Program-made: the position numbers and the translations under genes
Source: Methanothermobacter sp. CaT2
GTDB taxonomy: Archaea > Methanobacteriota > Methanobacteria > Methanobacteriales > Methanothermobacteraceae
Length of the DNA stretch: 32,000 bases
Reading direction: 5' to 3'
NCBI RefSeq assembly: GCF_000828575.1
Contig: NZ_AP011952.1
Span: 433,065 to 465,064 of the forward strand
The notes under the pieces: model-generated
Database searches by the model: none
Told to the model about the DNA's origin: nothing
Seen by the model: only the letters and a program-made list of their open reading frames with translations
Shown here: positions 2,523 through 32,000 of the stretch, piece after piece
Layout of the letters: each line of letters opens with the position of its first letter
How positions within the stretch are numbered: position 1 is the stretch's first letter

Positions 2523-3116
2523 TTAGAGCACTGCAAGTTCACCTGCAGAGGTTATCTCAAGCTTTTCCCGGTCAATGAACCCCATGTCACGGAGTTCCCT
2601 TATGTGGTTGTAGGTCATGCCCCTGCTTATACCTATCTTGACTGCAAGGTTTTTAACGGATTTTTCGCCGGCTTTGAGCTCCTCAAGGACCTGTTTCTTT
2701 GTCTTGGATATGCCGAAGCTCAGTATCGGGAGGTCTATCAGTTCATTGTCCTCCTCGGTCACATAGACTATGCGCTGGACGTCATGGTTCCTTGCGTAGC
2801 AGCCAAAGAGTGCTCCGAGTGCCTGGGTCTTCCTGCCGCCGCTTATGTTAACAACCACGCGCCTTCCATGGGCCCTTTCCTCGTCTATGATCTCAACCAT
2901 ATCCCTTGCAATGCTCACAACATCGTAGAGGCTCGTCTCAAAGGTTGTTATCTCCACTAAGTTACCGAGTGTGTCCCTGAGCACCTGTTCCACCTGTTCC
3001 TTTTCCCGTGGAGCCTTGTCCTCCTTGAGTAGAACCACCTTTCGCGGTGAGAACTGTGTTATGCAGAACATCACGGGTTCAATGGAGTATATCGTGGATA
3101 TCAGTGTGGTATCCAT
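2523..3116 (-). CDS. Csa3-like CARF + winged-HTH DNA-binding protein (CRISPR-locus-related DNA-binding protein family)
   Basis: N-terminal Rossmann-like region with the loop [20 protein letters not shown]-terminal w[33 protein letters not shown]. The ~197-200 aa size fits that family. The ORF track starts at GTG 3125, but the GGAGGG at 3128-3133 is only 2 nt from it, so ATG 3116 is preferred. Confidence 0.55.
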
Positions 3117-3382
3117 TATTATCACATCCCTCCAGTTTTCCTATCCCAAATTTTTGTTCACGGAAAACAATTCATTACAGTTAAAGGTATATTCTCTGAT
3201 TATTCTATATATAATTTTCCTACCTTGATTTTACATTCATAAAAACCGCTTTCTTCTATTAAATATCGGAGCATTTTTCAGAAATAAATTTAAAATTACA
3301 TGGAACCATCGTGTCTATCTTGAATTGTTTCATTCATTTCTGGAGATGCCGGGATTTTTAATGATCATGACATCACATCTGG

Positions 3383-3490
3383 GGATGGTATACTGAACTT
3401 AAGCGGGCTGGTATGTTAATCCTGATGAAAAAACTCCACAGTCAAGGATGGTATAATGAAGTTAACGAAGCTGATATCTTATCCATGAGG
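3383..3490. repeat. Two imperfect ~45-bp direct repeats with a 63-bp period in the AT-rich intergenic region
   Basis: Copy 1 (3383-3428) is ggatggtatactgaacttaagcgggctggtatgttaatcctgatga. Copy 2 (3446-3490) is ggatggtataatgaagttaacgaagctgatatcttatccatgagg. The first 10 nt are identical and roughly 70% match overall by eye. Confidence 0.6.
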
Positions 3491-3612
3491 TAAATTTCTC
3501 TGCTGTGTAAATAAAATAATGTTCTGTCAATAAAAAATGTTAAAATTTAAATATAATGACTCACTAATTAAATTTTAGATCCATTGATACATTTTATACT
3601 GTGGTGTTAGGT

Positions 3613-3939
3613 ATGAGATTTAAATATATATGTCACAGAAAACCAGAGCGAACATTTTCATTCAGGGGGCACTACTTTCCTGTGTGTTCAAGGTGTACCG
3701 GCATATACCTGGGGGCATTCACCTATTTCCTGTATGCATTCCTCATACCTGTGAAGTACACAGCAGCCACTGTGCTTCTGGCATTGCTTCTTGTGATCCC
3801 CACATTCATTGACGGATTCACCCAGCTGATGGGTTACAGAGAAAGCAACAATGTTCTGAGATTCTCAACTGGCCTGCCAGCAGGTATTGGACTGGCAGTG
3901 CTCACAAAGGTCCTCAAACATCTCATACTCCACCTCTGA
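3613..3939 (+). CDS. DUF2085-family small membrane protein
   Basis: [28 protein letters not shown] matches the DUF2085 Cys motif, followed by 3 hydrophobic helices. The ORF track starts at GTG 3601; ATG 3613 is preferred because TATA-like sequences sit at ~3553-3560. Confidence 0.6.
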
Positions 3940-3972
3940 TACTCAATGGATCAAAAAGAGGAGGTATTTTAA

Positions 3973-4455
3973 ATGAGCTGGTGGAAGGAACAGAGTTCAG
4001 CCACCAAGGCCGGCGTCCTCATAGGGGCACTGTGCCTTGGTATGATACTGGTAGTTGCGATAGCTGGAATGATGGCCCCGGATAATTCTCAGACCGGAGT
4101 AGAATCCGTAGATGAGAGTTCTGGGTCCACAGGAACTGAATCAGATATCGTGGTTGAGGACCTTCAGGTTGTCTCAGAGGGGTATGGAAGCTACTCTGTG
4201 AAGGGAAAGATCACTCCCAGCATTGACTTCTCCTACCTTGAAATGCACCTGAAGTGGTACGACTCAGAGGGGAACCTTCTCTATGATGACCCTCTGGCAT
4301 GGAACATAAACAATGCCAAGGCAGGGCAGACAGTTAAGTTCAGTGCAGTTGACTTTATTGACACAGGGACCCCCTCCAAGGTTGAAGTTATGATCTTTGA
4401 CTCACTGGCAGCGGATGATAGCTCAGCCATTTACAGGACAACAGTGAATGTTTAA
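3973..4455 (+). CDS. Membrane-anchored FxLYD-domain-like exoprotein
   Basis: Strong RBS gaggagg upstream. N-terminal TM helix (AGVLIGALCLGMILVVAIAG). The extracellular part contains WYDSEGNLLYDD, which resembles the FxLYD domain motif of archaeal anchored proteins. Confidence 0.5.
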   Translation: MSWWKEQSSATKAGVLIGALCLGMILVVAIAGMMAPDNSQTGVESVDESSGSTGTESDIVVEDLQVVSEGYGSYSVKGKITPSIDFSYLEMHLKWYDSEGNLLYDDPLAWNINNAKAGQTVKFSAVDFIDTGTPSKVEVMIFDSLAADDSSAIYRTTVNV

Positions 4456-16004: not shown

Positions 16005-17672
16005 GTGAAGATCAATGATGATGCTTCAATCGTCCTCTGCGGTGAGGCAGGGCAGGGCATACAGACCGTCGAGGCCCTCCTCATAAGGGCCTTCAAGGCC
16101 ACCGGCTACCACATATTCTCCTGCAAGGAGTACATGTCCCGTGTGCGTGGAGGGGAGAACTCCACACTGATAAGGGTATCATCCACACCGGTCCGGGCCT
16201 TCATAGAAAGGGTGGATGTGCTGTTTGCACTGAGCCCCGGTGCAGTGGAACACATGGATGGCCGTGTGAAGGATACACTGGTCATTGCAGATGAGGAGTT
16301 CCATGAGGAGGGCGCCATCAGCCTCCCGATAATGGGGGAGGCAGAGAAGCTGGGGGGCAGGATATTCGCCAATGTCGTTGCAGCGGGTGCAGCCGCAAAC
16401 CTCTTCGGTGTCAGAGAGGAAACATTCGATGAAGCCGTGCGGTCCCTATTCGAACGCAAGGGCCCTGACATAGTAGAGGCCGACCTCAGGGCCGGGAGGA
16501 AGGGCTATGAACTGGGTGATGAACTCAGGGAGCACCTTGAGATCAGCATTGAACCCCAGCCATCGGTGAGGGAACACGTTGTCCTCAACGGGACAGAAGC
16601 CGTTGGCATAGGGTGCATCGCCGGGGGCTGCCGCTTCATGTCATCATACCCCATGACACCATCAACTCCACTCCAGGTATTCATATCAGAGAACGCCGCT
16701 GAATTCGACATGGTATTCGAGCAGGCAGAGGATGAGATTGCAGCCATCAACATGTGCCTGGGGGCCTCCTATGCGGGTGCACGGTCCCTTGTCGCAACCT
16801 CAGGTAGCGGATTTGCCCTCATGGAGGAGGCCGTTGGCCTTGCAGGTATGATAGAAACACCTGTGGTTATATACATAGGCCAGAGGCCGGGGCCGGCTGT
16901 TGGTCTTCCCACCAGGACAGCCCAGGAGGACCTGAACCTCGCCCTCTACGCAGGCCCCGGTGAGTTCCCAAGGGCAATTCTGGCTCCAGGGAAACTCGAG
17001 GATACCCCTGAAATCGCGGCCCATGCCTTCAACCTGGCAGACAGGTACCAGATACCTGTATTTCTGCTCTCAGACCAGTACCTGGCAGACCTCTACTACG
17101 ACCTCCCCGCACCCCTGATCGGTGAGGAACCCTGTTACCATATCACCCGGACATGGGAGGGGTACAGGAGATTCGAGTTCACAGCTGATGGTATATCACC
17201 CAGGGGTATTCCGGGCTACGGGTCCGGGACGGTACGGGTGGACTCGGATGAGCACGATGAGGAGGGTCTGATAACAGAGGACCTTGACGTGAGGAGGAGG
17301 ATGGTTGAGAAGAGGAACCTGCGCCTTGAGATGCTGAGGGATGACGCACTGAAGCCCGAGGTGTACGGTGATAACTCCTCTGCACTGATATGCTGGGGTT
17401 CCACCTACTGGCCGGTACGGGAGGCCATCGAGTCCTCCGGTGCAGATGTGAGCATGGTGCACTTCAGCCAGGTCTACCCCCTCCCCCATGACACCCTGGA
17501 GCTCCTGGAATCATTCGACAGGACTGCTGTGGTTGAGAACAATTACCGCGGACAGTTCGCGGACCTCCTCAAGCTTGAGGGATTTGAGGCCGATGCAAGG
17601 TTCAGGAGGTACGATGGCATGCCCTTCAGCGTTGAGGGGGTTGCCGGATTCATCGAGGAGGTTCTACTATGA
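16005..17672 (+). CDS. 2-oxoacid:ferredoxin oxidoreductase, fused gamma-alpha subunit
   Basis: N-terminal gamma-type [13 protein letters not shown], then alpha-type [26 protein letters not shown]. The RBS gaggtga overlaps the msrA stop. Confidence 0.8.
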
Positions 17673-18535
17673 GGCCAGAGGATTATGACATGAATGTTGA
17701 AATTGCATGGTGTCCAGGATGCGGTAACTTCTCCATCCTGAGGGCCCTCAAGATGGCCCTTGCAGACCTGGATATACCCCCTGAGAGGCTTGTCCTTGTC
17801 TCGGGGATAGGCCAGGCAGGGAAGCTCCCCCAGTACCTGAAGTGCAACCACTTCAATGGACTTCATGGCAGATCCCTCCCGGCTGCAGTGGCCATCAAGG
17901 CCACGAACCCCGAGCTCACAGTCATCGATGTGAGCGGTGACGGCTGCATGTACGGTGAGGGCGGAAACCACCTCATCCATAACATCCGGAGGAACCCGGA
18001 CATAACCACCATCGTTCATGACAACATGGTCTACGGCCTCACCAAGGGCCAGGCGTCCCCCACAAGTCAGCCCGGCTTCAGGACTCCTGTACAGGTTCAG
18101 GGGGTCTTTGAGGAACCATTCAACCCATTAGCCGTGGCGGTTGCCCTGGGGGCCACCTTCGTTGCAAGGGCCTTCTCAGGAGATATTGAGAGGACGCGTG
18201 ACATACTGGTCGAGGCCATCAGCCACCATGGTTATGCCCTCGTGGATATATTCCAGCCCTGTGTGACCTTCAACCGTGTTAACACCTTCCAGTGGTTCCG
18301 GGAACACACATACTACACCGATCATGATCCTGCAGACAGGTTGCTGGCCCTTGAGAAATCCCTTGAGGGATACGGCGGGGGTAGGTTTCCACTGGGTGTC
18401 ATATACCGGGTTGAGGGTGAGAGGACCTTCGAGGAGAATCTCAGTGTATACCATGGGGATGCCACTCCCCTCTGGAGGCGGAGCCATGACCCTGATAAAC
18501 TGAAGCGTCTCATTGAATCAAAGAGGATGGTGTAG
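17669..18535 (+). CDS. 2-oxoacid:ferredoxin oxidoreductase, beta (TPP-binding) subunit
   Basis: [11 protein letters not shown] and the [19 protein letters not shown] motif. ATGA start/stop overlap with the alpha gene. Confidence 0.85.
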
Positions 18536-18571
18536 CTTCAATCTAACTTATGCTGATCTTCAGGTGATAGA

Positions 18572-18907
18572 GTGACAGCTGAAATCCGGCTCTACATAAC
18601 TGAGGGTGAGGTTGAGGATTACAGGGTGTTTCTGGAGAGGCTCGAACAGTCGGGCCTCGAGTGGAGAGCAGCGCCCCCTGAGGATGCCGATGCAGTCATA
18701 GTACTTGCGGGTCTATGGGGCACCCGGAGGGATGAGATACTGGGTGCTGTGGATCTTGCACGTAAATCATCAAAGCCCATAATAACCGTGAGACCCTACG
18801 GCCTTGAGAATGTACCCCCTGAACTGGAAGCCGTGAGTTCTGAGGTCGTCGGCTGGAACCCCCACTGCATAAGGGATGCTGTCGAGGATGCCCTGGATGT
18901 GATCTAA
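18572..18907 (+). CDS. MTH538-type TIR-like domain protein (DUF1863 family), 111 aa
   Basis: The length, sequence ([31 protein letters not shown]...) and position after msrA and the oxidoreductase genes match my recollection of M. thermautotrophicus MTH538. That protein is the founding member of the TIR-like DUF1863 family. GTG start with RBS aggtga. Confidence 0.65.
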
Positions 18908-19106
18908 TTCGTTAAGTAGTAGCTACGATCAGGCTGAAACTCTCTACGCACCCTCTGCAAGGCCTGCAGAACCATCATCATTCAGGTGCCTCAGATGTAG
19001 GCCTATAAAATGATCACAATATTCAAAGGATAATAACTCAGGGTATCAATAAAGTTGCCTGCTTGACTGATGGGAATTCAAAAAGAAAAGGTTAGGGTGG
19101 CCATTT

Positions 19107-19736
19107 TCAGGCCGATGATTTAACCACAAACATGCCGGGCTTGCTTGAGGTCGGGTGGTATATTTTGTTGTAGCCACTGTAGCTGTAGTCAACCCAGCGC
19201 CCTCCACTGTACACCTGTACAGTACGGTGACGTGGTGACATGCTTGTGGCGTACTGTATTATACGCACCGTCTTTCCGGCTGATGTGAGTTTCCTGTATA
19301 AATATTCACTCATGGCCCAGCAGTCCCCTATGTTAGGATCATAGCGGTATGTGCTGGTGCTGTAGGCGGCCCGCACCCGCTTCTTCTTGTAGTACTTCTT
19401 TGAGTACCTCTTCTTCACACTGGTACGGTATGTCGCCCTGACCTTCTTTCTGTAGGTCTTTTTGTACTTCTTGTACTTCTTGTACTTGTATGCGGCGTCA
19501 ACCTTTACAGGTTCGGCCTTTATATTTTCAGTTTTTGTTACTATTTTTGCGTTTTCTGTTCCAGTATTTACTGCCTCACTGATGGGCACTGAACCCACAG
19601 TGAACATCAGTGCAAAGAGCACTGTGACTGCTTTGAATCGCGTAATTTTATCGCCTCCAATGTCCAATACTAACCCTAAGGTCACTAAGGACACTGAGTC
19701 AATGGTTACATCATCATGGTATATAAATGTTTCCAT
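19107..19736 (-). CDS. Secreted Lys/Tyr-rich protein with a C-terminal transglutaminase-like Cys-His-Asp core
   Basis: GDCWAMSEYLYRKL...RHRTVQVYSGGRWVDYS has the C...H...D spacing of transglutaminase-like proteases. A signal-peptide-like TRFKAVTVLFALMFTVGSVPISEA begins at aa 31. GGAGG (19654-19658) and a TATA-like tatataaa (19720-19727) lie inside the long ORF. The real start may therefore be internal (ATT 19646?). Confidence 0.5.
   Translation of the reverse strand: METFIYHDDVTIDSVSLVTLGLVLDIGGDKITRFKAVTVLFALMFTVGSVPISEAVNTGTENAKIVTKTENIKAEPVKVDAAYKYKKYKKYKKTYRKKVRATYRTSVKKRYSKKYYKKKRVRAAYSTSTYRYDPNIGDCWAMSEYLYRKLTSAGKTVRIIQYATSMSPRHRTVQVYSGGRWVDYSYSGYNKIYHPTSSKPGMFVVKSSA
19464..19490. repeat. 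9-bp tandem repeat (gtacttctt x2 plus gtacttgta) encoding KYKKYKKYKK
   Basis: Direct reading of 19461-19490 gives tttgtacttcttgtacttcttgtacttgta. Confidence 0.8.
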
Positions 19737-20099
19737 AAAATAAAAGCTCTCTGAGCTTCTTTAATCAAAAAAAGCCACCAGAATCCTTTTCTAATATCTG
19801 AATACTCTTTGAGAATCCATGACACGTTATTTAATGAGATGGGTCCTTAGGGAATCTCATTTAAGGTTTGGGACAAAAAGCACTGGCCAATAGAAAAGCA
19901 ATGCAGAAGACAAATCCACTATAAAGAGCCATTCAAATGCCCCATTCATGTTAAAAGAAGATCCAGAAGGTTTAATGGGTTAAAAACAAGGCCATACTTG
20001 AAATTTGAATTTAGAATTCTTCTGATGGTTTAAATAACCTTAAAACCCGTTTTAAACCCTCAAAATTAAAAATAGAATTATTTTAATGGTACTGAAAAC

Positions 20100-22613
20100 T
20101 CAGCCGGCCTTTTCTATGATGGATGTCCCGTCAGACTTTTCAACCCTGTAGATATGGTCTGCAAGGTTTTCAAGTTCCTCCTCATGGGATACCAGGATTA
20201 TCTGTCTGGATTCAAGTTCATCGAAGATGTCCCTGAGCTTGTAGAGCTGCTCCTTGCTGAATCCATCGGTGGGTTCGTCCAGTATAAGTATGTCCGACCT
20301 CACATCGGTGAGACGCTGGACCACCATGTTCAGTGCAAGCCTGTATGCAAGGGCTATGCTGGTCCTTTCACCACCACTGAGGTATTCAAGGTTCTGTTCA
20401 TAGCCATCCTGCTCAACGATGGGTGTGAAGTCCTCATCGATCCTCACGGATTTACCGGGGTCATCCACCAGGACCCTGAACCATTTCTGGAATCTCTCAT
20501 TGAACTCATGGTTTATCTGTGCCATCACGTGGGTCTCAATGTCAGCGAGGGCCGGGATGAAGTACTCCTCGAGCCAGGCCACATAGGTCCGCAGCTGAAG
20601 GGAACGTTTTCGGAGTTCCCTCTTTTTATCAATTTCAGACCTTAGGGTCTCAATCTGTCTCTCCTTTTCCTCGATCTTTCCTTCCAGTGCCCCTCTTCTA
20701 TCTCTCCTCTCGTCACGGAGTCTCTCCTTTTCCCTGATAGTTCGGGTGAGTCCATGTATACTGGCCTCAACATCTTCCCTGTTTCTGAGTACCTCCTCAT
20801 TCTCCTTTATTTTAGCTTTCTTTTCAGCGATCTTATTTTCATTTTCATCGATTTTATTGAGGTTATCTCTGTATTCCCTGCTGGTCTCGGGGTTGAGTTC
20901 ACTGATCCTGGTCCTGAGGTGATCCATCCTATCCTCTGTTGCTGCAAGTCTGCCAGAGCATTCTGACTCACGCTCACGCAGGGATTTCAGTTCATTCTCC
21001 ACCATGTTGAATTCGGATTCAGCGTCCTTCAGTTCCCCGATTATCCTCTCAGTCCCTGCAATCTCTTCCTCTATCTTCTGGATCCTTTCCCTGGTTTTAT
21101 CAAGACCTTCACGCTTTCTACGACACTCCTCAATCCTTTTCTCAAGGTCCTCCATGAGCAGCCTCATTTCATCCTGGGCCCTTTTATACTCCGCTATACG
21201 TTTCAGGAGTTCATTTTTATCCGAGATTTCATTTCTGAGCTCCGCTATCCTTGATTCAACTGACATCTTTCTTTCGAGGGCCCTGCTGAGTTTATCATCT
21301 ATGTAGTCCGGGTCAACTTCCTGGTCACAGGTGGGACATACACCCATCTTTCCGATGGATTCATAGTCCTCTATCTTTCCTTGTATCCCACCGAGTTCCT
21401 GCTGGAGATCTGACACCTCAACCTCAAGCCTCCTGATGCCTGCTTCAACTTCATCCTCCCTGTATCCTGGATCCTCAATGGACTTTATGGCCTCTATCTT
21501 TGATTTTATCCCGCCAGTATAATCCTCAAGCCCGGATATCTCATCCTCCAGATCCTTCCCTGTCTTAAGGAGATTCTCGAGTTCGCTGGTAAGATTTCTG
21601 TACTGAATCGAAGCCTCCCTGAACCTCCGAGAGTCCTCCATGAGGGATTCCCTCTTCAGCTCAAGGTCACTGATCCTTTCTCTCAGGGAATTCAGTTCCT
21701 CCTGAAGCTTTTCCCCGATATCACTGCATTTCTGAAGTTCATCAAGGGATCTCTGATATTCAACCTCTATAACCCTGTTTCTTTCCATGAGTCTCTCTGA
21801 GGATGACATGAGGGTTTCTATCTCATTTTTAAGGGATTCTATCTCCTTCTCTGCACTATCAATCCTGTTTTTCTCTCTCTGAAGAACTTCCATCTCTGAT
21901 TTAAGTTTGCCTATCTCCACCTCGATTCCGTCAATATCACTGTCAAGCTGCTTCTTCTCCACCTCTAGTTTCTCCTTCTCCCCTAGAAGTCCTTCAAGTT
22001 CCTTCTCCTTATCCTCAAGATCATAGGACCTGTCTTCAAGGCTTTCTGATTCCCTCTTTATTCTCCTGGAAACAAGCCTTGCGTTATCAGCCGCCCTGCT
22101 GTACTTTTCAAGGTCAAAGGCCTTCCTGAGCCTCTCAAGACGGTCATTCGTGGGGGCCTCGATTATGCTCTTCATCTGCTCCTGTGGTGTGAAGACAGCA
22201 TAACGGTATATCCTGCTCCTGGCCCTTGGATTGAGGGGTTCCCTGTAACCTAGGATCTCAAGTACCTCGGCCTTCAGTTCCTTTGCAGAGAGTTTCCTGA
22301 CCCCCCGGGGTGTTCTGATGTAGAGCTCGCCCTGCTGAACCCCTGATGATCCCCTTTTGAGTTCCCTGTAAACCGTGTACTCATCGCCATCAACAGTGAA
22401 GGTGAGCTTGACTGAACCTGAATTTGATGTGGCCCTCAGGAGGCTGTCACCCCTCTGATCACCCAGACCGAAGAGGGCGAATTCTATTGCAAGGAGCAGG
22501 GTGGTCTTACCTGACCCTATATCACCCTCAAAGAGGGTCACCCCATCATCAAACTCAACCCTTCCCGAGTCATAGCTCCTTATGTTCTTAAGTTCAAGTG
22601 AATTGATGATCAA
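20100..22613 (-). CDS. rad50: Rad50 DNA double-strand-break repair ATPase
   Basis: Walker [10 protein letters not shown]. Long Glu/Lys/Leu coiled coils with a central CPTC zinc hook (21327-21338). Signature [17 protein letters not shown] and Walker B ILILDEPT. 4-nt overlap with mre11. Confidence 0.9.
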
Positions 22614-23872
22614 GTATCATCACCCCCCAGATCCAGGCCCAGGACATCCTCGGCATCCTCGGTGATCCGCCTCTCATATTCGTTCCTGTTCTCACCGGGG
22701 GCCTTCTCATTCTCAAGTCTCCTCAGGAGTTCTACTGCAATGGAATCACCCCCATCAATGAGGCTCCTGTTTTTGATGTCAAGGCCTGCAAGTTTCTCCC
22801 TGAAGATCCTCCTCTCCAGTCTGGGCACATCACTCTCCACCACCCTGACCTTCTGGATCTCGCGGGTGCTGAGGCCGTACCTGTTTATCTGGACAACACG
22901 GGCCCCCATGGATTCAAGTCTTTCCCTTATACTCGCCGAATCTATGTCCGATGTCCTTCCTGAGCTGAGCTCGCCCCGGATCTTGAGCATCACAACCTTT
23001 CCGGTAACATCATGACCTGATATCTCCCGCCCTATCTGGTGGTATGCGTCCTGTGAGTTCTTACCTGTGACATCACATTCAATGTAATCGAATTCTGCGG
23101 GGCTTATCTCCCTGAATTCAGTTTCCCTGACCTTATCAGTGAATTCAACGAGATAGTACCCCCTTTTCTCGCCCCTGGCGTTCTCCTCGAGGTCACCGGC
23201 GTATGAACCAAAGAGTGTGCCAGGGTACACGATGGGACCGTAGCCCTCCTCAATATAACATCCCTTACGGTGTACGTGGCCACCTGCATAGTACTCGAAG
23301 CCCCTGGGGAAGAGGTTCAGGTCCACCGATTCCATATCTGCAAGGTCAGCAGGTTTGAACTGGGTTATGGCGCTGTGGAAGAGGAATATCCTGAATCCCT
23401 CTTCGGCCTCCAGGGCCTCCCTGTCAAGCCTCATGAAGTAGTCGACCTCAAGGGTCCTTGATCTGCCTGACAGTCCTGTGATCTTTGCACCTGTCTTCTC
23501 GTCCACCGTGAACTCAAGTCCAAGCTTCTTACCGGGGATGGGGCGCACGACCTTATCTATCACCCCTGCACTTTCAAGGATGTCTATCATGGACGTGCTG
23601 GATGGGCTGTAGTCATGGCTCCCGTAATTGACGTATATGGGGACCCCTGCCTCCCTGACCCTCCTGAGTTCAAGGGTGGCCCTCTTTACGGTCTCCATGT
23701 TGGGTATGTTGGAGTGGAAGAGGTCCCCTGCTATTATCATGAAGTCCACGTCATTCTGGAGTGCATCGTCCAGGGCCATCCTGAAGGCCTCGAATTCAAG
23801 TTCCCTGAGGTCAGGCTGTTTCTGGGCCCCCAGGTGGCAGTCTGAGAGGTGTGCGAATCTGTACATGCTCAC
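22610..23872 (-). CDS. mre11: Mre11 nuclease
   Basis: Calcineurin-like phosphoesterase motifs [18 protein letters not shown] and GGHVH, plus operon position next to rad50. Confidence 0.9.
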
Positions 23873-23874
23873 AC

Positions 23875-25407
23875 CTACCCGATAAAGTCAATCTTCTCAT
23901 CTTCAGTATCCTCTGATTCCAGTCCAGCTGATTCAATGAACTCCTCAAAGAGGGGTATCTTCACAGGGACTGCGAACTTTGTGAATATGCTGCTAACTAT
24001 GGCTTCACCCTTATCAAGGCTTGCTATGGTCCTGTTATCATCTGATAGGTCCTGTGAGGCACTCCCTATTATCTCGGCCCTCTCCTGGGCCATCTCATTT
24101 CCCAGGATTATCTTGGTGTTCATGTTGGCAAGGACGGTCCTGGGTATCAGGCTGACGAGCTGGGTTATTGCAATGAGGCCTATGTTAAATTTACGTCCCT
24201 CCCTGGCTATTGTGCTGTAGATGTTGTTTCCCTGTCTCTCAATGACCTCCTTTCCGAGGACGCGGGGGGCCTCCTCTATGACTATCCCTATGACCGGTTT
24301 TCGTCTGAGTTCCCCTGTGGCCTTGTAGTGCTGGTACCTCCTGAAGATCTCGGCTGAGATGACGCTTCCAACCAGGAGCTCCGCCTCTCCCATGAGCCTT
24401 GAGGTGTCCACCACAACGATCTTTCCATCCTCAAGGCTGGCCGCGATGTCCTTTATGGTTGAATCGCCTCCACGGTCCCTGAAGACTCCTCCACGTGACT
24501 TTATGTTGCCCTCATTATCCAGGTATACACCGAGGGTGACGTCGAAGATCCTCCGGAGCACGTTGAGTGTCACCGGCTGTACACCGGGAAGTTCCTCCCC
24601 TTCCACGATCTTCATGATCCATTCATCCCCGAATTCGTTGTGGTACCTTGCAATTGCCTGTTCCTGTGCCTGTGTGAATGGGATTATGCCCTCAAAGTGT
24701 TCGGGGCGGAGTGATCTGAGGTTTATGGTGAGGGTGTTCCCGCCCACAGGTGCATCAGGGGAGTAGTAGATCACATTATCTGAGGGGTGCCTCCCGAGGC
24801 CGGCCTCGTTCCTCCCGTAGTACTCATCGTGTGGGTCCAGGACTAGAATGCCCACCCTGTCCATCTCTGCGAGGCTCCAGAGCATCACCTTCACAAGGTT
24901 ACTCTTACCCCTCCCTGTGGTTGCAGGTATGAGGATGTGGTGGGTTATGGCGTCAACTGCATCGACGTAGACCGGTGTATCCAGGACCTTTGACCCGCTC
25001 CTCACGTGTCCCAGGAAGACCGGGTTGCCGGGCCTCTCCAGGAAGTCAAGGTCACCCTCCCGGATCCTCCTCACCTCCCTGAAGAATCTGGGGAGGCGTT
25101 TGGGTATCATTGGCTGGCCATCCCGCACATGGAGTATGGGGCGGGCCTCTGCAATGATGTAGTTCCTCAGCTCAGGTTCGAGGAACTCCACATCCCCGCT
25201 GTACCCCTCAAGGTTGAACCCCGAGGCCAGCTCCCTCATGCCCTGGGGTATCTGGGACCTGTATTTGAGGTCCTTGACCTGGAGTATTGTGTAGCCGTCA
25301 CCCTCTGCAACCAGAAGGTCGCCGAGTTCTATTGGTTCACCTGCTTTCTGCCTTATGAGTACCGCGGCTGTTTCGCCGCCTATTATCTGCCCTGCAGTTT
25401 CCATCAA
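23875..25407 (-). CDS. herA: HerA hexameric DNA helicase/translocase
   Basis: Walker [15 protein letters not shown], Walker [11 protein letters not shown], ~500 aa, located between nurA and mre11. Confidence 0.85.
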
Positions 25408-26468
25408 TCCTCACCTGCATACCTGTTCAGTTCATCATGGTAGTTGAGGGCATCCACCTCATCCCTTATGCCCTCAAGGACCTCCCGGTCCCTGACCTGT
25501 GAGAGGAGCCTCCTCCTGTATATCTCCACCTCATCACCTGAGACCCTGGCCCTCATATCCACATCAACCAGACCGTAGGGGTAACCCGGGAAGCATGCAT
25601 CCCTGGCGTTCTCTGAGAGGGCTGATGCCACTACCTGTGCATCATCCCTTCCGCACTCTCCAAGGATGTCCATCCTGAATATCCGCCCTGCGGGGTTCAG
25701 CTTAACCGCCGTGAGGGTTGTTGCCCTGTCTGTCCTCACGGCTATGGGGTGGTAGCACCAGCCCCCCTCCATGTCACAGTCTGCGGCGAGCCTCCCTATG
25801 GCTGCAAGGAGTGACATTGAGGTGGTCGTGTAGAGGGTGCATGTCTTTGAGAGTCCGGCAATATGGATATCCCCTGACTCCTCCCAGAGTTTTCTTATGT
25901 AACTGTTCTCCTTCTCAAAGGATGCCTGCAGTGATCCGTCCCTGACCAGTATATCGCCATCCTGGAGTTCATCCAGCGCCCTCCGTGCCATGCTCCACTC
26001 TGCGAATCGCCTGGGAAGGCCCTTGAGGGTTGACTCATCAAACAGCTCTGCATCGCCAAGTTCCAGGTGAAGATCCTCCTCATCAGGCAGGAATTCCCTG
26101 TAATCCTCCATGATGGGGTGGATCTGGAATGTGCACATTTCATTCCCCGGGTGGATCCTCATGACCGATAGGAACTCAACCACCGGTGGTATCTCTGGCT
26201 GGATCCTCCTGGTCCCCATGAAGAGGCCCAGTGCAACCCTGTTGAGCTGGACCGATATGGTTGGCCCCTCCAGTATGGGGCTGTTGCCGCCGTCTATGAA
26301 GGCCATGCGCCTCTCTTCTCCTCCTTTGATGGACAGGAAATTATCCCTGCTGAATTCATGCACCCTGTATCTTGCTGACCTGAAGTATGGCCTTCCGATA
26401 TCTGACCTCACGGTAGCCTGGAGGGTCTCTGCAATCCTATCAAAAATGTCCAATAAAAAATCCCCCAT
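25404..26468 (-). CDS. nurA: NurA 5'-3' nuclease
   Basis: 354 aa, with MAFIDGGNS matching the NurA catalytic Asp motif. 4-nt overlap with herA. First gene of the nurA-herA-mre11-rad50 operon. Confidence 0.7.
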
Positions 26469-26499
26469 GTAAATGTTTAATGTTGAATAAGAAATAAAT

Positions 26500-26507
26500 A
26501 TTATAAA
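26500..26507 (-). promoter_or_regulatory. TATA box candidate for the nurA-herA-mre11-rad50 operon
   Basis: The minus strand reads ctatttataatattta. TTTATAAT lies 32-39 nt upstream of ATG 26468, implying a very short leader. Confidence 0.4.
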
Positions 26508-26572
26508 TAGTTTGTGGTTTTTAATTGAATGGCCTTGTCATCTGACCGTTCCAGGGATATCCGGACCCTTAC

Positions 26573-27097
26573 CTACTCCTCCGGCTCAACGATGACGGCT
26601 GTGCCGTAGGCAAGGATCTCCTGCATTATGTCGGAGATGGAGTCTGAGTCAAAACGGACGCTAATAACAGCATTCGCCCCCAGTTCACGGGCATGGTCAA
26701 GCATCCTCTCAAGGGCCTCCTGCCTTGAGTGCTCCATCATGGTGACGTACTCCTTGATCTCACCACCCACGATGGACCTTAAACCTGCACCTATCTGGCC
26801 CCCCAGGCCTCTGCTCCTCACTGTAAGACCATAGACGAATCCAAGTGTCTCAACTGCCCTGTGGCCAGGTACGTAGTTGCTTGTAACGTATATGATATCC
26901 CCGTGCTCCTCAACAACCGGCGCCCCCTTTCTTTCCTCAAGCTTCGTGCCGCACTCGTCACAGAAGTTTGAGTCAGCCCCGTACTCCTTACCGCAGTTTG
27001 GACAGAATTTCTCTGCTGATGCGGTGCTTGTGGAGGGTGCTTCCCCCCTGCCTCTACGCGCAGCCAGTCTCCTCTTCATCTCTTCGCTTGTAACCAT
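26573..27097 (-). CDS. Zinc-ribbon + YbjQ/UPF0145 (heavy-metal-binding-like) domain fusion protein
   Basis: CPNCGKEYGADSNFCDECG ribbon, followed by YVPGHRAVETLGFVYGLTVRSRG...GGEI...EALERMLDHARELGANAVISVRFD, typical of the YbjQ family. Start chosen at ATG 27097 (MVTSEEMKRR), because the longer ORF to 27205 would overlap the divergent gene. Confidence 0.65.
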   Translation of the reverse strand: MVTSEEMKRRLAARRGRGEAPSTSTASAEKFCPNCGKEYGADSNFCDECGTKLEERKGAPVVEEHGDIIYVTSNYVPGHRAVETLGFVYGLTVRSRGLGGQIGAGLRSIVGGEIKEYVTMMEHSRQEALERMLDHARELGANAVISVRFDSDSISDIMQEILAYGTAVIVEPEE

Positions 27098-27143
27098 AAT
27101 AACACCATAAATATTTCTATTGCAGATGTATAATAAGGTTACC

Positions 27144-28445
27144 ATGAGATCAAGCATGCCACACTCAGGGGTTAGGGGGGCAGTGGAGAGGGTCAAGGGC
27201 TTCATCCCCGGAATAGCAGTGCCCTACATCCCCCTTATCATCATAGGTATGCTCCTCATCATTAAACCATACTACCTCTTCCCGACACATGGGGACCTGG
27301 ACTTCCATCTTGTGAGGGCCAGGGAGATAATGATCAACCCATCCTATGGCCTCCTATGGGACTACCTGGTCTACTATCCCATGGGGAGACCCCTGGGCCA
27401 TCCCCCACTGCTTCACGTGATACTTGCAGGCCTCTGGGTCCTTGGAGGTGTGAGGTTCGCCCACTCCATCATGTGCATACTCCAGATACTCATCACCATA
27501 TTCACGGCCTCATGGGTGGCCTCCGGGTGGTATGGCAGGAGGGCCGGCCTCATAGCAGGGACCCTCGTACTCGCATCCCCACGCCCGGATACCCTCTCCG
27601 TTATAATGCCCGCAGCCTACATACCTGTACTCATGGTCCTCACGGTTTACCTCCTGTCAGAGGACCGGCTCTCCGCTGCTGTAACAGGTACCCTTGCACT
27701 CTGGACCCACTTCATAGCACTCATAACAGTCGTCCCCGCGGTGCTGGCAGACGGTGTGAGGAGAAACCTCAAGGTGCTCCTCCTGCTCCTCCCATCCTTC
27801 ATATTATGGTGGGCCTACTTCCTCACAGCGAGGGGCGCCCCATCCGAGCCTGTGAATGGTGGCTACTTCAGCATCGGCTGGCTTGTGTTCCTCATACTTC
27901 TATACTTTGGGGTCCCTGGGCTCTACCTTATAAGGGGGCGGAGGGAGTTCAGGCCCCTCGTGGCCTACATTCTCACAGTGCTCCTTGCAGAGATCCTCTT
28001 TGATGATATATCGAGGGGTCTGCAGTACGTGGCACTCCCGCTGGCAGTGGTGGGTGGATACACAGGTTCAAGGTTAATCGACAACCCCTCAGGGGCTGTA
28101 AGGCTGGTTACCGGAATCCTCATCATCTCATCGGCCACTGTATTCGTCGAACAGCTCCTTCTAACTGATATATGGTGGTCTGATGCTGATATACCATTTG
28201 AGAACCGATACTATCCCCTTAAGGAGTACATTGACATCCATACATCCCCTGATGACGCGGTATGGGCCTCTGGTTCAGTTGCTGATAAGGTTGCCTGGAT
28301 GACCGGGAGAAGGGTTTCAAATGGTCGCTACGGGCCTCCTCCCGGTTTCAGGGAGACGCACCAGGATATCAACATCTACAGTGAGGATGGGGGATTCGTG
28401 GTGAGGGATAAAAAGAACAGTACTGTGGCTGTTATAGACCCATAG
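27144..28445 (+). CDS. Polytopic integral membrane protein with a soluble C-terminal domain (possibly GT-C-type glycosyltransferase; function uncertain)
   Basis: At least 9 hydrophobic segments through aa ~350, then a hydrophilic ~90-aa tail. The start is ambiguous (TTG 27120, ATG 27124, 27144 or 27156). Confidence 0.4.
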   Translation: MRSSMPHSGVRGAVERVKGFIPGIAVPYIPLIIIGMLLIIKPYYLFPTHGDLDFHLVRAREIMINPSYGLLWDYLVYYPMGRPLGHPPLLHVILAGLWVLGGVRFAHSIMCILQILITIFTASWVASGWYGRRAGLIAGTLVLASPRPDTLSVIMPAAYIPVLMVLTVYLLSEDRLSAAVTGTLALWTHFIALITVVPAVLADGVRRNLKVLLLLLPSFILWWAYFLTARGAPSEPVNGGYFSIGWLVFLILLYFGVPGLYLIRGRREFRPLVAYILTVLLAEILFDDISRGLQYVALPLAVVGGYTGSRLIDNPSGAVRLVTGILIISSATVFVEQLLLTDIWWSDADIPFENRYYPLKEYIDIHTSPDDAVWASGSVADKVAWMTGRRVSNGRYGPPPGFRETHQDINIYSEDGGFVVRDKKNSTVAVIDP

Positions 28446-28456
28446 TATGGGTATGT

Positions 28457-31174
28457 TTATCTTCTGACCTTTTTCTTAAGATCAATTCCCAGCTGTTCAA
28501 AGGTTTCAAGTATCCTCTCATATTTTGTGTCGTCCATCTCCCCATCCCCTGCCACTATCCTTATCTCTGCCACTGCATCAACGTCACTGAAGTCCTCGCT
28601 GATGGTCCTCTTGATCCTGATGATATTTGACATGTTTTCAAGGGCGGTGGTGAATTCCAGTTCAATCCATTTAATGTGCCCATTCTCATCTTCCACTAGC
28701 TCATCTTCCACTAGCTGCAGTACCTCACCCTCTGTGAAGTCCGGCATATCCTTCCCATCAACCCTTAGCTTACCCTTCTGTATACCCTCATCTATGACCT
28801 CTCTGAGTTTCTCCTTAACGATTTCAGGTTCACACCCCATACCCCTGTACTTCTCCGTATATTCTCTCAGTATCTCAATCGTTGCCATTTTCATCCGGGC
28901 CCGTTTTTCAAGTTCACCAACACCTATATCTATGGCATCAGGGGGGCACTCCTCACAGAGTTTTGGATTAACTATTATTTCGGGCGGCTTCAATGAGACA
29001 CTGCAATCCTCACCGATATGTCTGCACTTTGGGTCGCCTGGGTCGCCTTCCAGTACGCCGAGCCCAAAGAGCCTCCTCTTCACACCCTTCCTTATTGCTT
29101 CCTCCAGTACACTGGGACTCATTATCCTCATGGCACCGGGTGTGGTGTGGAAGCTCCTGAGTATCCTCTCTGTCTCAATATAGTCTTCCTGAAGGTATTT
29201 CCTCTCGATTATCACAGGATCCAGGGATTCAAGGAGTTTATCCTCCTCAATGAGCCTGCTTTTTATCTCATAGTCAACCTTCACATCTGCACCGTAGCTT
29301 GCCATCCCAAGGTCTATCCTTTCAAGTCCTGAACGTGAGGGTACAAATACCATCCTGTAAAGGTTCCTTATACTCTCCCTGTCCTCAGCTGAGACTGACT
29401 TTATCTTCTCCCTCACCTCCCTTTTCTGTTCATCTGTAAGGGAGAGTTGCCTGTCTGATTCAACAGCCATCCAGGCAAGTTTTGTCTTTATGTGTTCAAC
29501 AAGCTGGTACCTGTGTGTATCATCCGCCTTGAGGAATATCAGGGTATTCTTGTAGACCCTGGGCTTTTCGCCCTTAAACTCAAGGAAACCAGTACAGTCA
29601 TCGGCGTCCTCAAGTACTATGAGCTTGAGTTTCATGTCATCAGGGACATCGGAGGCGGAAGATGGCCAGATGTAGACACTGAAAATCTTCTTACCTGTTA
29701 TCTCGCCGAGAAGGCGCCTCTCCTCATCCCTGACATCCTCATCCCTTATGTTCTCCTTCTTCCTGAGGACTATGGCGTTGAGGTTGGCCTCAGCAGAGAA
29801 GTAGTAGAGGTCCACCTGCTTGTGTATGTAGAATAGCCTCTCAATCATCATGTTGAGGGCCCCGTCTATGATGGACATGGGGATCTCAGACTCCAGGCAG
29901 GCCATCTTTATATCCCTTATGGTTGCACCGTCCCTTACCCCTCCCCCTGAGAATGAGTACAGGAATATTGATCTCGCTATCCTTGTGCCTATCATGTAGG
30001 GCTCGTACCCCCTGAGTTCCCTGTCAATGATCCTGGCACCTGCATCGGGGGATGTTATATCGGCGGCTATGATGCTATCAAAATTGTTACCTGTGAACCT
30101 CAGGAACTCCCTTTTGAGGTTACCTGACTCCAGTGGAAAGTCTGATAGCCTTATAACTGGTGTGCTGGATGATATGAGCCGGTTCACCACCATGGCAAGT
30201 AGTCTCAGCACACCCCTTGTCCTCTGGAAGTTTGGGAACGAACCCCATCTCTCATAGAGGACGTCTATAACCTCTGGCTGGAAGGGGTAGCTCTTCCTGA
30301 ATACCTCACGATAGTCGGCTGCGTTCATACCCTCAGGGAGGATGCCCTCAGATTCTGCCTTTTCAGTGAACTCCTCTATAACATCAATGGCCGCTGATTC
30401 ATCCACCCTCTTAAACAGCCTCTTCCTTATGACAGAGTAGATCTCGTCGTCCTCGACGGGTGTGAAGATCTTCTCTGTCCTCCCCAGAACCTTTGTGAGC
30501 TGATGGAAGAGTTTCTCTGCGGCTTCATCATAGTGTTCAAGGGAACTTGATGGGAGTGTCACCACCAGTGAAACTCTCTCGAGGGCTGATGCTGCCTGGC
30601 TTAGCTCCTGCATGAATGCCAGGAGCTGGCCTGCAAGTGTGGACTCCCCAACAGTCACACCACTTGCCTTCACCGCGTACTCGAGGAGTTCATCCATGAG
30701 TATCAGCACCGGCTGCTTCTCTCGGAGGAGCCCCATGATCTTATCCATACCCGGGGAGGTCATCCCTGAGAATTCCCTTACCTCCCCACGGAGCTGCCTC
30801 TCCATTTCAGCCCAGAGTGTTGTTTCACTGGCGTCCAGGGCGTCGCCTGAGAGCACAACTCTGGAAGCCCCTATATCACCTGCCCTGTGGTAGAGGGATA
30901 TGAGGGTATGGGTTTTACCCCCACCGAAGGGTGTCTGGAGCTGTATCACAGGGTCGCCGCCCCTGCCCTCGAGTCTGTCACCAACGATATCCATTATGTT
31001 CCTGAGTCCACGGGTCATGTAGGTTTTCCTGAAGAAGACATCAGGGTCCTGGTACTCTGCTGGTGCCTCCCCCTTGTGGACACTCCACAGGTTGGCTGCG
31101 AAGACGTCCAGTGAGAGCCTTTCCCCCATTATGTCCTCATGTGGCTCAGCAATGTTTACAAATGGCCTCATCAT
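28457..31174 (-). CDS. DUF499-family P-loop ATPase (COG1483-like), 905 aa
   Basis: The N-terminal region ...FFRKTYMTRGL...IQLQTPFGGGKTHTLISLYH (Walker A at 30908-30934) and VLILMDELLEY (Walker B-like) match my memory of DUF499 proteins. RBS GGAGGAGG upstream. Lies 13 bp downstream of the DUF1156-type gene. Confidence 0.65.
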   Translation of the reverse strand: MMRPFVNIAEPHEDIMGERLSLDVFAANLWSVHKGEAPAEYQDPDVFFRKTYMTRGLRNIMDIVGDRLEGRGGDPVIQLQTPFGGGKTHTLISLYHRAGDIGASRVVLSGDALDASETTLWAEMERQLRGEVREFSGMTSPGMDKIMGLLREKQPVLILMDELLEYAVKASGVTVGESTLAGQLLAFMQELSQAASALERVSLVVTLPSSSLEHYDEAAEKLFHQLTKVLGRTEKIFTPVEDDEIYSVIRKRLFKRVDESAAIDVIEEFTEKAESEGILPEGMNAADYREVFRKSYPFQPEVIDVLYERWGSFPNFQRTRGVLRLLAMVVNRLISSSTPVIRLSDFPLESGNLKREFLRFTGNNFDSIIAADITSPDAGARIIDRELRGYEPYMIGTRIARSIFLYSFSGGGVRDGATIRDIKMACLESEIPMSIIDGALNMMIERLFYIHKQVDLYYFSAEANLNAIVLRKKENIRDEDVRDEERRLLGEITGKKIFSVYIWPSSASDVPDDMKLKLIVLEDADDCTGFLEFKGEKPRVYKNTLIFLKADDTHRYQLVEHIKTKLAWMAVESDRQLSLTDEQKREVREKIKSVSAEDRESIRNLYRMVFVPSRSGLERIDLGMASYGADVKVDYEIKSRLIEEDKLLESLDPVIIERKYLQEDYIETERILRSFHTTPGAMRIMSPSVLEEAIRKGVKRRLFGLGVLEGDPGDPKCRHIGEDCSVSLKPPEIIVNPKLCEECPPDAIDIGVGELEKRARMKMATIEILREYTEKYRGMGCEPEIVKEKLREVIDEGIQKGKLRVDGKDMPDFTEGEVLQLVEDELVEDENGHIKWIELEFTTALENMSNIIRIKRTISEDFSDVDAVAEIRIVAGDGEMDDTKYERILETFEQLGIDLKKKVRR

Positions 31175-31187
31175 AACCTCCTCCAGT

Positions 31188-32000
31188 TCATTTATAATCC
31201 TTCAGTGTTTTCTGTCTTGTTTTCTCCTTGAGGCTCTTCATCATGGTCTCCCTGTTCACAATTAAACCCTCAAGCCACTGCTTTTCCCTGCAGTTTGGCA
31301 GGAACTCTATTATTGCCTGGGCGACACGGTAGAAGCTTTCACTTGTACCGTAACCTGTCTCTAGGAGAAGTTTCTCAAGTTCTTCCTTTCTGCCCTCACT
31401 CCATAACCTGGCTGCAAGGTGAAGGGCGTCTATGAGTTCTGTGGTGTCATGGTCCTCACCCCTTTTATCAGGTCCTAGGACTGTGACCTTACCCCTCTGT
31501 ATCCTTATGAAGCCTGCCCGGCTGGTGTTGAGGTCTATGCCAAGGCTACCAGCCAGTTTCCTTGCCTCATCGAATTCCACTCTGGAGTTCTCGAAGTTCC
31601 ACCTGTAGAAGAGGTAGAACCTTGTGAGGGGTGATAGTTCATCTGCAAACCCATTATCCAGGATCCTCCTTATGGCGAAGTCGGCCGCGACACTCCTTAT
31701 ATCATCCAGGAGTCTGGAGCCCCTGACCTCCTCGCCATTGTATTTGAGGATCTCACTGTACTTCCCTATAACCTCCAGGCCGGCGCCTATGGCAGCTATG
31801 AAGAAGTCAGGGCCGCTTATACCCTCCTCCCAGAGGTACTCCAGCTTCTCACCGAGGACCTCCTTCAGTTCGACCTGGACCTCCTCATAGTAGCCCGTTT
31901 TCTTCTCAAAGTCCGGTTTACGCGCCACGATGTAAATGGATGATGCAAGGGCTGCTGAAGATTGGGCTCTAAGCCTATGTTTTTGTTCGGTGAATATGGG
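31188..32000 (-). CDS. DUF1156-type DNA methyltransferase, C-terminal 270 aa (gene continues beyond the window)
   Basis: The frame has no stop from 31928 up to nt 32000 (...ALASSIYIVARKPDFEKK...). ASSIYIVARK and TRFYLFYRWNFENSRVEFDEARKLAGSLGIDL resemble the conserved C-terminal region of DUF1156/COG1743 methylases. The pairing with DUF499 supports the call. Confidence 0.55.
   Translation of the reverse strand, partial: PIFTEQKHRLRAQSSAALASSIYIVARKPDFEKKTGYYEEVQVELKEVLGEKLEYLWEEGISGPDFFIAAIGAGLEVIGKYSEILKYNGEEVRGSRLLDDIRSVAADFAIRRILDNGFADELSPLTRFYLFYRWNFENSRVEFDEARKLAGSLGIDLNTSRAGFIRIQRGKVTVLGPDKRGEDHDTTELIDALHLAARLWSEGRKEELEKLLLETGYGTSESFYRVAQAIIEFLPNCREKQWLEGLIVNRETMMKSLKEKTRQKTLKDYK

Follow-up and report, generated by a model that had tools for sequence, protein, structure and literature searches.

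The question addressed here is what is encoded at the end of a 32,000-nucleotide stretch of the Methanothermobacter sp. CaT2 genome (NZ_AP011952.1, positions 433,065 to 465,064; referred to below as the window), where two genes lie on the minus strand and the first of them is cut by the window edge. An earlier note on this DNA had taken the pair for a DUF1156-type methylase and a DUF499 ATPase, forming a restriction-modification (RM)-like module. We conclude that they are most probably the last two genes, hmaB and hmaC, of a three-gene Hma operon, also known as a Type-1 DUF499-centred BREX-related (BR) system, a methylation-linked defence module in Methanothermobacter of the CaT2/marburgensis group. 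The name Hma comes from PADLOC, which listed the system as a candidate defence operon and counted 1,638 instances across 26 phyla (Payne et al. 2021; PMC8565338); it was renamed Type-1 BR by Rakesh & Krishnan (NAR 2026), with 2,446 taxa, 203 of them archaeal (PMC12839542). Type-1 is defined by an ATPase, a DUF1156 N6-methyltransferase and a Snf2 helicase with a C-terminal PD-(D/E)xK nuclease, whereas in Type-2 a standalone DUF3780 gene is added and the helicase bears an HKD nuclease (PMC12839542). The Hma family itself is already catalogued, and the locus described here is an instance from an archaeal, thermophilic host. Methanothermobacter serves as a model organism of methanogenesis and is used industrially for power-to-methane conversion, and strain-specific restriction barriers in it affect genetic tools and virus resistance.

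On the minus strand, an open reading frame (ORF) of 270 codons runs in from the window edge at nt 32000 and ends with a TGA at 31188-31190; it includes ALASSIYIVARKPDF (31908-31952) and TRFYLFYRWNFENSRVEFDEARKLAGSLGIDL (31530-31625). This truncated hmaB ORF has no Pfam match. It matches the PADLOC model HmaB ('DNA-adenine methylase') at 2.2e-13 over profile positions 696-881 of 973, corresponding to the C-terminal third, and is 87% identical to the C-terminus of an 885-aa DUF1156 protein of strain K4. The 13-nt gap that follows contains GGAGGAGG and is directly followed by ATGATG; translation of hmaC from the first ATG gives 905 aa, and gene callers start at the second (31171), for a product of 904 aa. 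The 18-mer with GGAGGAGG has a second occurrence inside hmaB. The arrangement of the two genes indicates an operon. HmaC matches Pfam DUF499 (1e-37) and PADLOC HmaC (3.2e-124), and with these values and that of the hmaB fragment a chance match is excluded for the window genes. The score of HmaC against the NCBIfam model NF042962 DUF499_antiphage was 166.6 bits, below the curated cut-off of 1200, so that HmaC is a relative of that family and was rejected as its equivalog. The ORF coordinates, peptides, gap, Walker motifs and convergent downstream gene given by the earlier note were all borne out, and its reading of the two families agrees with the profile matches. It had also seen no helicase or nuclease domain in the visible part, and profile searches found none there.

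Any further components had been expected beyond nt 32000. An exact look-up with the YbjQ protein of the window led to contig L009 (Logan DRR120520_53), of which L016 is the same contig with more flank. Both are 100% identical to window positions 17567-32000 (14,434 nt) and run past the window edge. Window nt x corresponds to L016 position 9172 + (32000 - x), and the hmaB fragment is 100% identical to L016 9172-9984. An exact 32-mer scan of JGI metagenomes with the last bases of the window found nothing. Upstream of hmaB, L016 encodes the expected missing component, a Snf2 helicase-nuclease, whose gene hmaA is a single 1071-aa ORF in this contig and in five others. HmaA matches PADLOC HmaA at 2.2e-177 and has the Pfam domains SNF2-rel, Helicase_C and, at its C-terminus, NOV_C (955-1042). 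The motifs GAGKT, DEAH and QRMGRIHRY are intact, as is the nuclease signature D985...E998-V-K1000...E1014, and the nearest relative in the PDB is RapA (2e-38). Residues 1-90 have no Pfam match; an N-terminal TUDOR domain has been described for the Type-1 BR helicase. The genes of the trio are joined by overlaps or short gaps with ribosome-binding sites. Judged from these sequences, the trio is complete and every predicted catalytic motif is intact in the strain that matches the window.

The full HmaB of L016 (885 aa) matches PADLOC HmaB at 1.5e-129. It contains the methylase N-terminus, with Zn ribbon and SAM motifs, that had been predicted in the earlier note: a DUF1156 domain at residues 10-63 (2e-21, Pfam), the S-adenosylmethionine-binding motif I DPFGGGGS at 104-111, a Cys4 cluster (C202/C207/C262/C265) and DPPY at 505-508. 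By its motif order (I, central insert, DPPY) the enzyme is assigned to group alpha. The part encoded in the window (616-885) was modelled with a pLDDT (predicted local distance difference test) of 82.9 and is mostly helical, with one winged-helix-like (helix-helix-hairpin) unit at fragment residues 124-174; the family is reported to have a helix-turn-helix (HTH) triad. Foldseek gave no significant PDB match for the model of this C-terminal domain, and PDB sequence searches with the methylase and with HmaC gave nothing useful.

For HmaC, the residues T80-H88 (Walker A) and D160 and E161 (Walker B) are invariant across 40 homologues. The exact 904-aa product was found on 20 public contigs, and its 90% cluster takes in BAM69720.1 of Methanothermobacter sp. 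CaT2 and ADL58528.1 of M. marburgensis str. Marburg. A scan of GTDB genomes gave distant relatives only (a Syntrophobacter, a Nitrososphaerota archaeon and a Spirochaetia bacterium). The protein has no N-terminal HEPN fusion. The top Foldseek match of its AlphaFold2 model (pLDDT 84.4) was BrxC 9zll/9zdx (E = 7e-6, template-modelling score 0.50, ~575 columns), followed by archaeal and eukaryotic ORC/Cdc6 proteins, including ORC2. The match to BrxC is an independent check of the relationship to BREX (bacteriophage exclusion). Compared with strain K4, nucleotide identity is 50-76% in the C-terminal part of the gene and ~80-90% elsewhere. Residues 833-904, where an RRM fold was expected, were modelled as two helices with no DSSP strands (pLDDT ~77-85).

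Features of the Hma locus in the window and in contig L016, and state of its insertion site in the strains compared
Feature	Location	Strand	Remarks
hmaB 3' end	window 31188..32000	minus	residues 616-885 of 885 and TGA stop; C-terminal helical domain past the catalytic core
hmaB variable cassette, 3' edge	window 31911..32000	minus	cassette ~272-645, mostly outside the window
hmaB-hmaC intergenic ACTGGAGGAGGTT	window 31175..31187	minus	13 nt; ribosome-binding site for hmaC
hmaC	window 28457..31174	minus	905 aa; DUF499 AAA+ ATPase, ORC/Cdc6-BrxC type
HmaC Walker A GGGKT	window 30911..30925	minus	inside TPFGGGKTHTL (30902-30934)
HmaC Walker B MDE	window 30689..30697	minus	inside VLILMDELLEY (30677-30709)
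Spacer between hmaC stop and convergent membrane-protein gene stop	window 28446..28456		11 nt; right-hand edge of the ~8.8-kb module
Convergent membrane-protein gene	window 27120-28445	plus	downstream of hmaC
Response-regulator glycosyltransferase	L016, upstream flank	plus	partial
TPR protein	L016	plus	416 aa
Amino-acid permease	L016	minus	423 aa
AT-rich intergenic region	L016		227 nt; TATA-like boxes
hmaA	L016 4108-7323	plus	1071 aa
hmaB	L016 7327-9984	plus	885 aa
hmaC	L016 10001-12715	plus	904 aa
Membrane protein	L016	minus	429 aa
YbjQ, NurA, HerA, Mre11, Rad50	L016, downstream flank	plus	
CaT2-type contigs	permease / membrane-gene site		trio present
M. marburgensis str. Marburg (L029, CP001710.1)	permease / membrane-gene site		trio present
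Strain K4 (L005)	permease / membrane-gene site		trio present; ATPase 80% identical
M. marburgensis-annotated metagenome-assembled genome (L017, GCA_041928885.1)	permease / membrane-gene site		trio present
Strain KEPCO-1 (L006, complete genome)	permease / membrane-gene site		empty; 41-nt spacer
Two JGI metagenome-assembled genome contigs (L023, L024)	permease / membrane-gene site		empty; 68-nt spacer

The trio is an accessory insertion between two conserved genes, the permease gene and the membrane-protein gene, and is missing from other strains. Its presence in some Methanothermobacter genomes and absence from others sets it apart from a universally conserved housekeeping locus, and none of the outcomes that the earlier note had named as refuting its reading was observed. 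An 11.6-kb block (L016 3789-15356, window ~25816-32000 and beyond), spanning the trio, the membrane gene, YbjQ and part of nurA, is nearly identical between L016 and L017, in backbones that differ by 5-15% on both sides, which suggests a recent transfer of the module by homologous recombination in the flanks. A divergent Hma trio, with an ATPase 56% identical, was also observed at another chromosomal site in a Methanothermobacter metagenome-assembled genome (MAG; GCA_964268345.1, L025 3136-14635). One of its neighbours is a class I aminoacyl-tRNA synthetase gene, and behind the trio comes a UvrD-helicase/PDDEXK_1 gene that may encode an auxiliary nuclease.

Within the nearly identical block, one segment of the methylase stands out. 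Comparison of L016 with L017 showed the helicase, the ATPase and both ends of hmaB to be identical, and the difference to be confined to L016 8140-9261, i.e. HmaB residues ~272-645. The 3' edge of this cassette (L016 9261) falls at window position 31911. Contig L004 likewise matches the window up to ~31900 and then shows 23 mismatches and gaps in the last 100 nt, with only three nucleotide differences between its ATPase gene and that of the window. Inside the cassette, a patch of about 90 aa just upstream of motifs III/IV (HmaB 411-500) is only 37-45% identical among three alleles. Between the L016 and L017 alleles the patch is 37-41% identical and its proportion of nonsynonymous differences (pN) is 0.44, versus 0.05-0.09 in the adjoining parts of the cassette; outside the patch, the cassette retains 86-95% protein identity with high synonymous divergence. 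The allele of the Marburg strain is a third one, with 41-45% identity to the others, and the L017 allele resembles that of K4 (81%). At least three patch alleles (CaT2/window type; L017/L030, K4-like; Marburg) are therefore found in loci otherwise 98-100% identical. Metagenome contigs L004 and L013 stop at or near the cassette edge, which fits coexisting variants in the samples. No description of such an allelic series for Hma was found in the literature searched.

A counterpart is known from MANTIS, a Type-2 BR system (Shaw et al., bioRxiv 2026). Two natural MANTIS systems differ mainly at methylase positions 444-527, between motif I (241-245) and DPPY (621-624), and a swap of this ~84-aa stretch of the target-recognition domain (TRD) switches the specificity of both methylation and restriction (10.64898/2026.09.23.753747). 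By position, the Methanothermobacter cassette would enclose the equivalent region, with the patch approximately at, or just C-terminal to, the MANTIS specificity segment. The hypervariable segment of the methylase probably sets the DNA target. Going further, each allele may write its own adenine-methylation motif and redirect restriction with it, which would make these otherwise identical Hma loci a natural specificity switch; we offer this proposal tentatively, as somewhat more doubtful than probable. If true, a Type-1 BR system would have its targets mapped for the first time, an archaeal example would for the first time be shown to function, and the system would be seen to work without the DUF3780 co-activator required by Type-2.

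A split form of the methylase was also observed. In an Hma-type locus on ENA contig ERZ26872905 NODE_1 (L027 5880-9908), the methylase is divided into a 494-aa N-terminal half with DUF1156 and a 411-aa C-terminal half. An MNT-HepT toxin-antitoxin pair is inserted between the halves, a second such pair precedes the ATPase gene and a Schlafen/AlbA_2-HATPase gene follows the helicase gene. The split point coincides with the hypervariable patch, and the many clusters of ~411 aa suggest that the split form is common.

How such a module might work is inferred here from the reconstitution of MANTIS and from HmaA of Halomonas. HmaC would bind ATP and, as an ORC/Cdc6-like loader, load or activate HmaB on DNA. 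HmaB would methylate a single adenine within a short and probably asymmetric motif, recognised through the central target-recognition region of the enzyme, and so mark host DNA as self. On unmodified incoming DNA, the HmaB/HmaC complex would recruit or license HmaA, which would translocate on the DNA and nick or cut it through its C-terminal NOV_C nuclease. Exchange of the methylase patch by homologous recombination would then change the specificity of modification and restriction alike. In MANTIS, the DUF499 ATPase and the DUF3780 protein MtsB are needed for methylation, the methylase sets the specificity of the helicase-nuclease, MtsA, MtsB and MtsC are all required for restriction, and inverted unmodified sites are restricted best (10.64898/2026.09.23.753747). 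Halomonas HmaA alone restricts phage T4, for which its Mn-dependent NOV_C nickase domain is required (PMC11232893). The description of these modules as mechanistically uncharacterised no longer holds, given the anti-T4 defence by HmaA reported in 2024 (PMC11232893) and the reconstituted Type-2 system (10.64898/2026.09.23.753747). Archaeal members are catalogued, and no experimental test of one was found in the literature searched.

Several observations weigh against the assignment of the locus to a working, methylation-guided Hma module. As seen above, experiments on archaeal members are wanting, and no methylome data for these strains were found in the same literature. T4 grown with Halomonas HmaB was not protected, and HmaA was protective alone (PMC11232893), so that the coupling of methylation to restriction is unproven in Type-1. 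Since Type-1 systems have no MtsB (DUF3780), which is essential in MANTIS, the loading step may differ from that of MANTIS, and the patch is aligned with the MANTIS segment by position and only approximately. In our models, neither the published RRM at the DUF499 C-terminus nor the HTH triad of the methylase could be clearly made out. Of the three genes, hmaA and most of hmaB lie outside the window and are known through the identical contig alone. The search for terminal repeats gave short, chance-level repeats only, and there is no integrase among the called genes of the L016 locus. The G+C content of the module (0.50-0.51, compared with 0.54-0.56 in its neighbours) and, likewise, that of third codon positions are only mildly different, and composition is not informative here.

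In one alternative, HmaA is a self-sufficient, abortive-infection-like effector, and the methylase and ATPase are independent or regulatory, or aimed at other elements, with no self-marking for HmaA. Halomonas HmaA alone reduces T4 ~100-fold, T4 from HmaB-expressing cells is unprotected and 15-20% of HmaA homologues have no neighbouring hmaB or hmaC (PMC11232893). In every Methanothermobacter copy, however, including the divergent one at another locus, the trio is tightly linked and its junctions are operon-like. Being heavily modified, T4 DNA is a poor test of protection by adenine methylation, which counts against this alternative. The allelic hypervariable patch is moreover the pattern expected for a specificity determinant under diversifying selection, and in the Type-2 sister system the methylase sets the specificity of restriction, with all three of MtsA, MtsB and MtsC needed. 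We therefore regard a solitary role for HmaA as unlikely. A different view would see the locus as being in decay, its methylase and ATPase left as orphans with no working restriction arm. The window itself shows only the 3' end of the methylase gene and the ATPase gene, and in the Marburg strain (L029 4106-7320) the loss of one nucleotide from a short run of C (L016 position 4941) splits hmaA into ORFs of 294 aa and 774 aa, leaving hmaB and hmaC intact. This frameshift is either a natural loss of the restriction arm in the model strain or a sequencing error, to which homopolymers may give rise. The unsplit hmaA, present with all its helicase and nuclease motifs in the contig identical to the window and in five others, refutes decay for the window strain, and as an account of the locus it is very unlikely.

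The module might also have a housekeeping role in epigenetics or DNA repair, as a functional accessory to the adjacent NurA-HerA-Mre11-Rad50 system, and no part in defence. It lies ~1.9 kb (two genes) from nurA-herA-mre11-rad50, HerA matches the PADLOC 'mad8' and HerA defence models, and HerA/FtsK-centred BREX-related systems have been described (PMC12839542). The matches of HerA reflect general HerA homology, though, and the trio and the membrane-protein gene in between are transcribed towards each other. A related trio stands beside unrelated genes in another Methanothermobacter MAG. KEPCO-1 and L023, which lack the trio, have an intact repair operon with syntenic, intact flanks; a functional link between Hma and HerA-NurA was rejected on this ground, and we consider a repair role extremely unlikely. 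A three-gene Hma defence module remains the preferred reading of the locus.

The surroundings had been described as accessory-looking in the earlier note, and this did not hold. The neighbours encode YbjQ, NurA-HerA-Mre11-Rad50, a 2-oxoacid oxidoreductase, MsrA and pseudomurein Mur-type ligases; they have housekeeping roles and do not form a defence island, and the syntenic ones are conserved in strains without the trio (KEPCO-1, L023). The TIR-like neighbour proposed there, a 111-aa ORF at 18572-18907 on the plus strand, has no Pfam match, gives a weak match to PADLOC ThsB (2e-4) and lies ~10 kb away. An ORF of similar size occupies the same position beside the oxidoreductase beta-subunit gene with or without Hma (K4, KEPCO-1, L023), and the TIR-like ORF is therefore not linked to the module. 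As for the supposed transglutaminase-like protein, there is no such domain among the ORFs scanned.

Further observations concern the rest of the window. HerA, encoded with NurA at 23875-26468, matches the PADLOC 'HerA' and 'mad8' models at ~5e-24, and the nurA-herA-mre11-rad50 repair operon was found in all strains compared. Automated defence finders could mis-score the region. The central part of rad50 (20100-22613) has 60-70% nucleotide identity between L016 and L017, versus 80-88% for mre11 and herA. Just beyond rad50, a 209-aa ORF on the minus strand (19107-19736) has no family match and adjoins intergenic DNA with a G+C content of 0.42. The ORF at this position varies from 162 to 212 aa by strain, and few stretches of these otherwise similar genomes are as diverged (L016 and L017 are 57-65% identical here). 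Near the other end of the window, a gene at 2523-3125 (minus) encodes a CARF-wHTH protein (PADLOC CARF3, 1e-97; CasR/Csa3-like), followed at 1643-2503 (minus) by a gene for a small STAND/AAA_16-like ATPase. This pair adjoins a low-G+C stretch (3001-4000, 0.38), and no cas genes were seen in the window.

The mechanism of the three-gene type is of interest, as it has no MtsB-like activator and the sole experiment had the helicase acting alone. The strains described here provide a comparison set, with the empty site of KEPCO-1, the three patch alleles (CaT2-, Marburg- and K4/L017-type) and the possible frameshift of the Marburg helicase. The series of methylase patches in otherwise identical loci is the most useful new point and, together with the empty site and the possible frameshift, makes a test of specificity in an archaeon straightforward.

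Among known systems, MADS (methylation-associated defence system; Maestri et al. 2024), to which the earlier note had related the locus, is likewise a methylation-based, multi-ATPase defence. It has eight genes (mad1-mad8), whereas the trio gave only a weak mad2 match on the methylase core (1e-8), HmaC had no mad match and the mad8 match belongs to the conserved HerA of the Mre11-Rad50 operon; membership was rejected and the two are different systems. There are also resemblances to BREX, especially Type 3 (BrxC, BrxXI/PglXI, BrxHII). Both are methylation-based self-marking systems, the ATPase model is closest to the solved BrxC structures, and HmaA and HmaB match BrxHII (2.6e-111) and PglXI (2e-12), respectively. 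The present methylase has a DUF1156 N-terminal domain, in contrast, the nuclease is fused to the helicase, and PglZ, BrxA, BrxB and BrxL are not among the called genes of the locus, which led us to reject canonical BREX. With Type III and Type ISP RM systems the module would share a methylase that alone reads the site and directs a helicase-nuclease, as well as hemimethylated asymmetric sites; this is shown for MANTIS and extended here by analogy. It differs from them in adding an ORC/Cdc6-type AAA+ loader and a Snf2/RapA-like helicase, and in the architecture of its methylase.

MANTIS, or Gao_RL, has in common with the present locus a DUF499 AAA+ ATPase, a group-alpha N6-adenine methylase whose TRD lies centrally, between motif I and DPPY, and a superfamily 2 helicase-nuclease effector, together with natural variants that differ mainly in a short TRD segment setting specificity. 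Unlike the present locus, it requires MtsB (DUF3780), and its helicase bears an N-terminal HKD/PLD nuclease instead of a C-terminal PD-(D/E)xK. The DUF3780 partner anticipated in the earlier note is absent: there is no extra gene between or beside the trio in L016, L005, L017 and L029, and membership of MANTIS/Type-2 BR was rejected, the locus being of the Hma/Type-1 BR and not of the DUF3780 type (PMC12839542). An HKD/PLD nuclease on HmaA was rejected as well, since Pfam detected no PLD and the PADLOC 'PLD_Helicase' match is confined to the helicase core (521-598). Hma, or Type-1 BR, agrees best. The same three genes stand in one operon, all three PADLOC models match very strongly, a DUF3780 gene and a HEPN fusion are both absent from the locus, and the ATPase varies most in its C-terminal part. 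The RRM and HTH triad reported for the family were not clearly confirmed in our models, and the locus departs from the described family in its archaeal thermophilic host and in the natural allelic series of its methylase patch.

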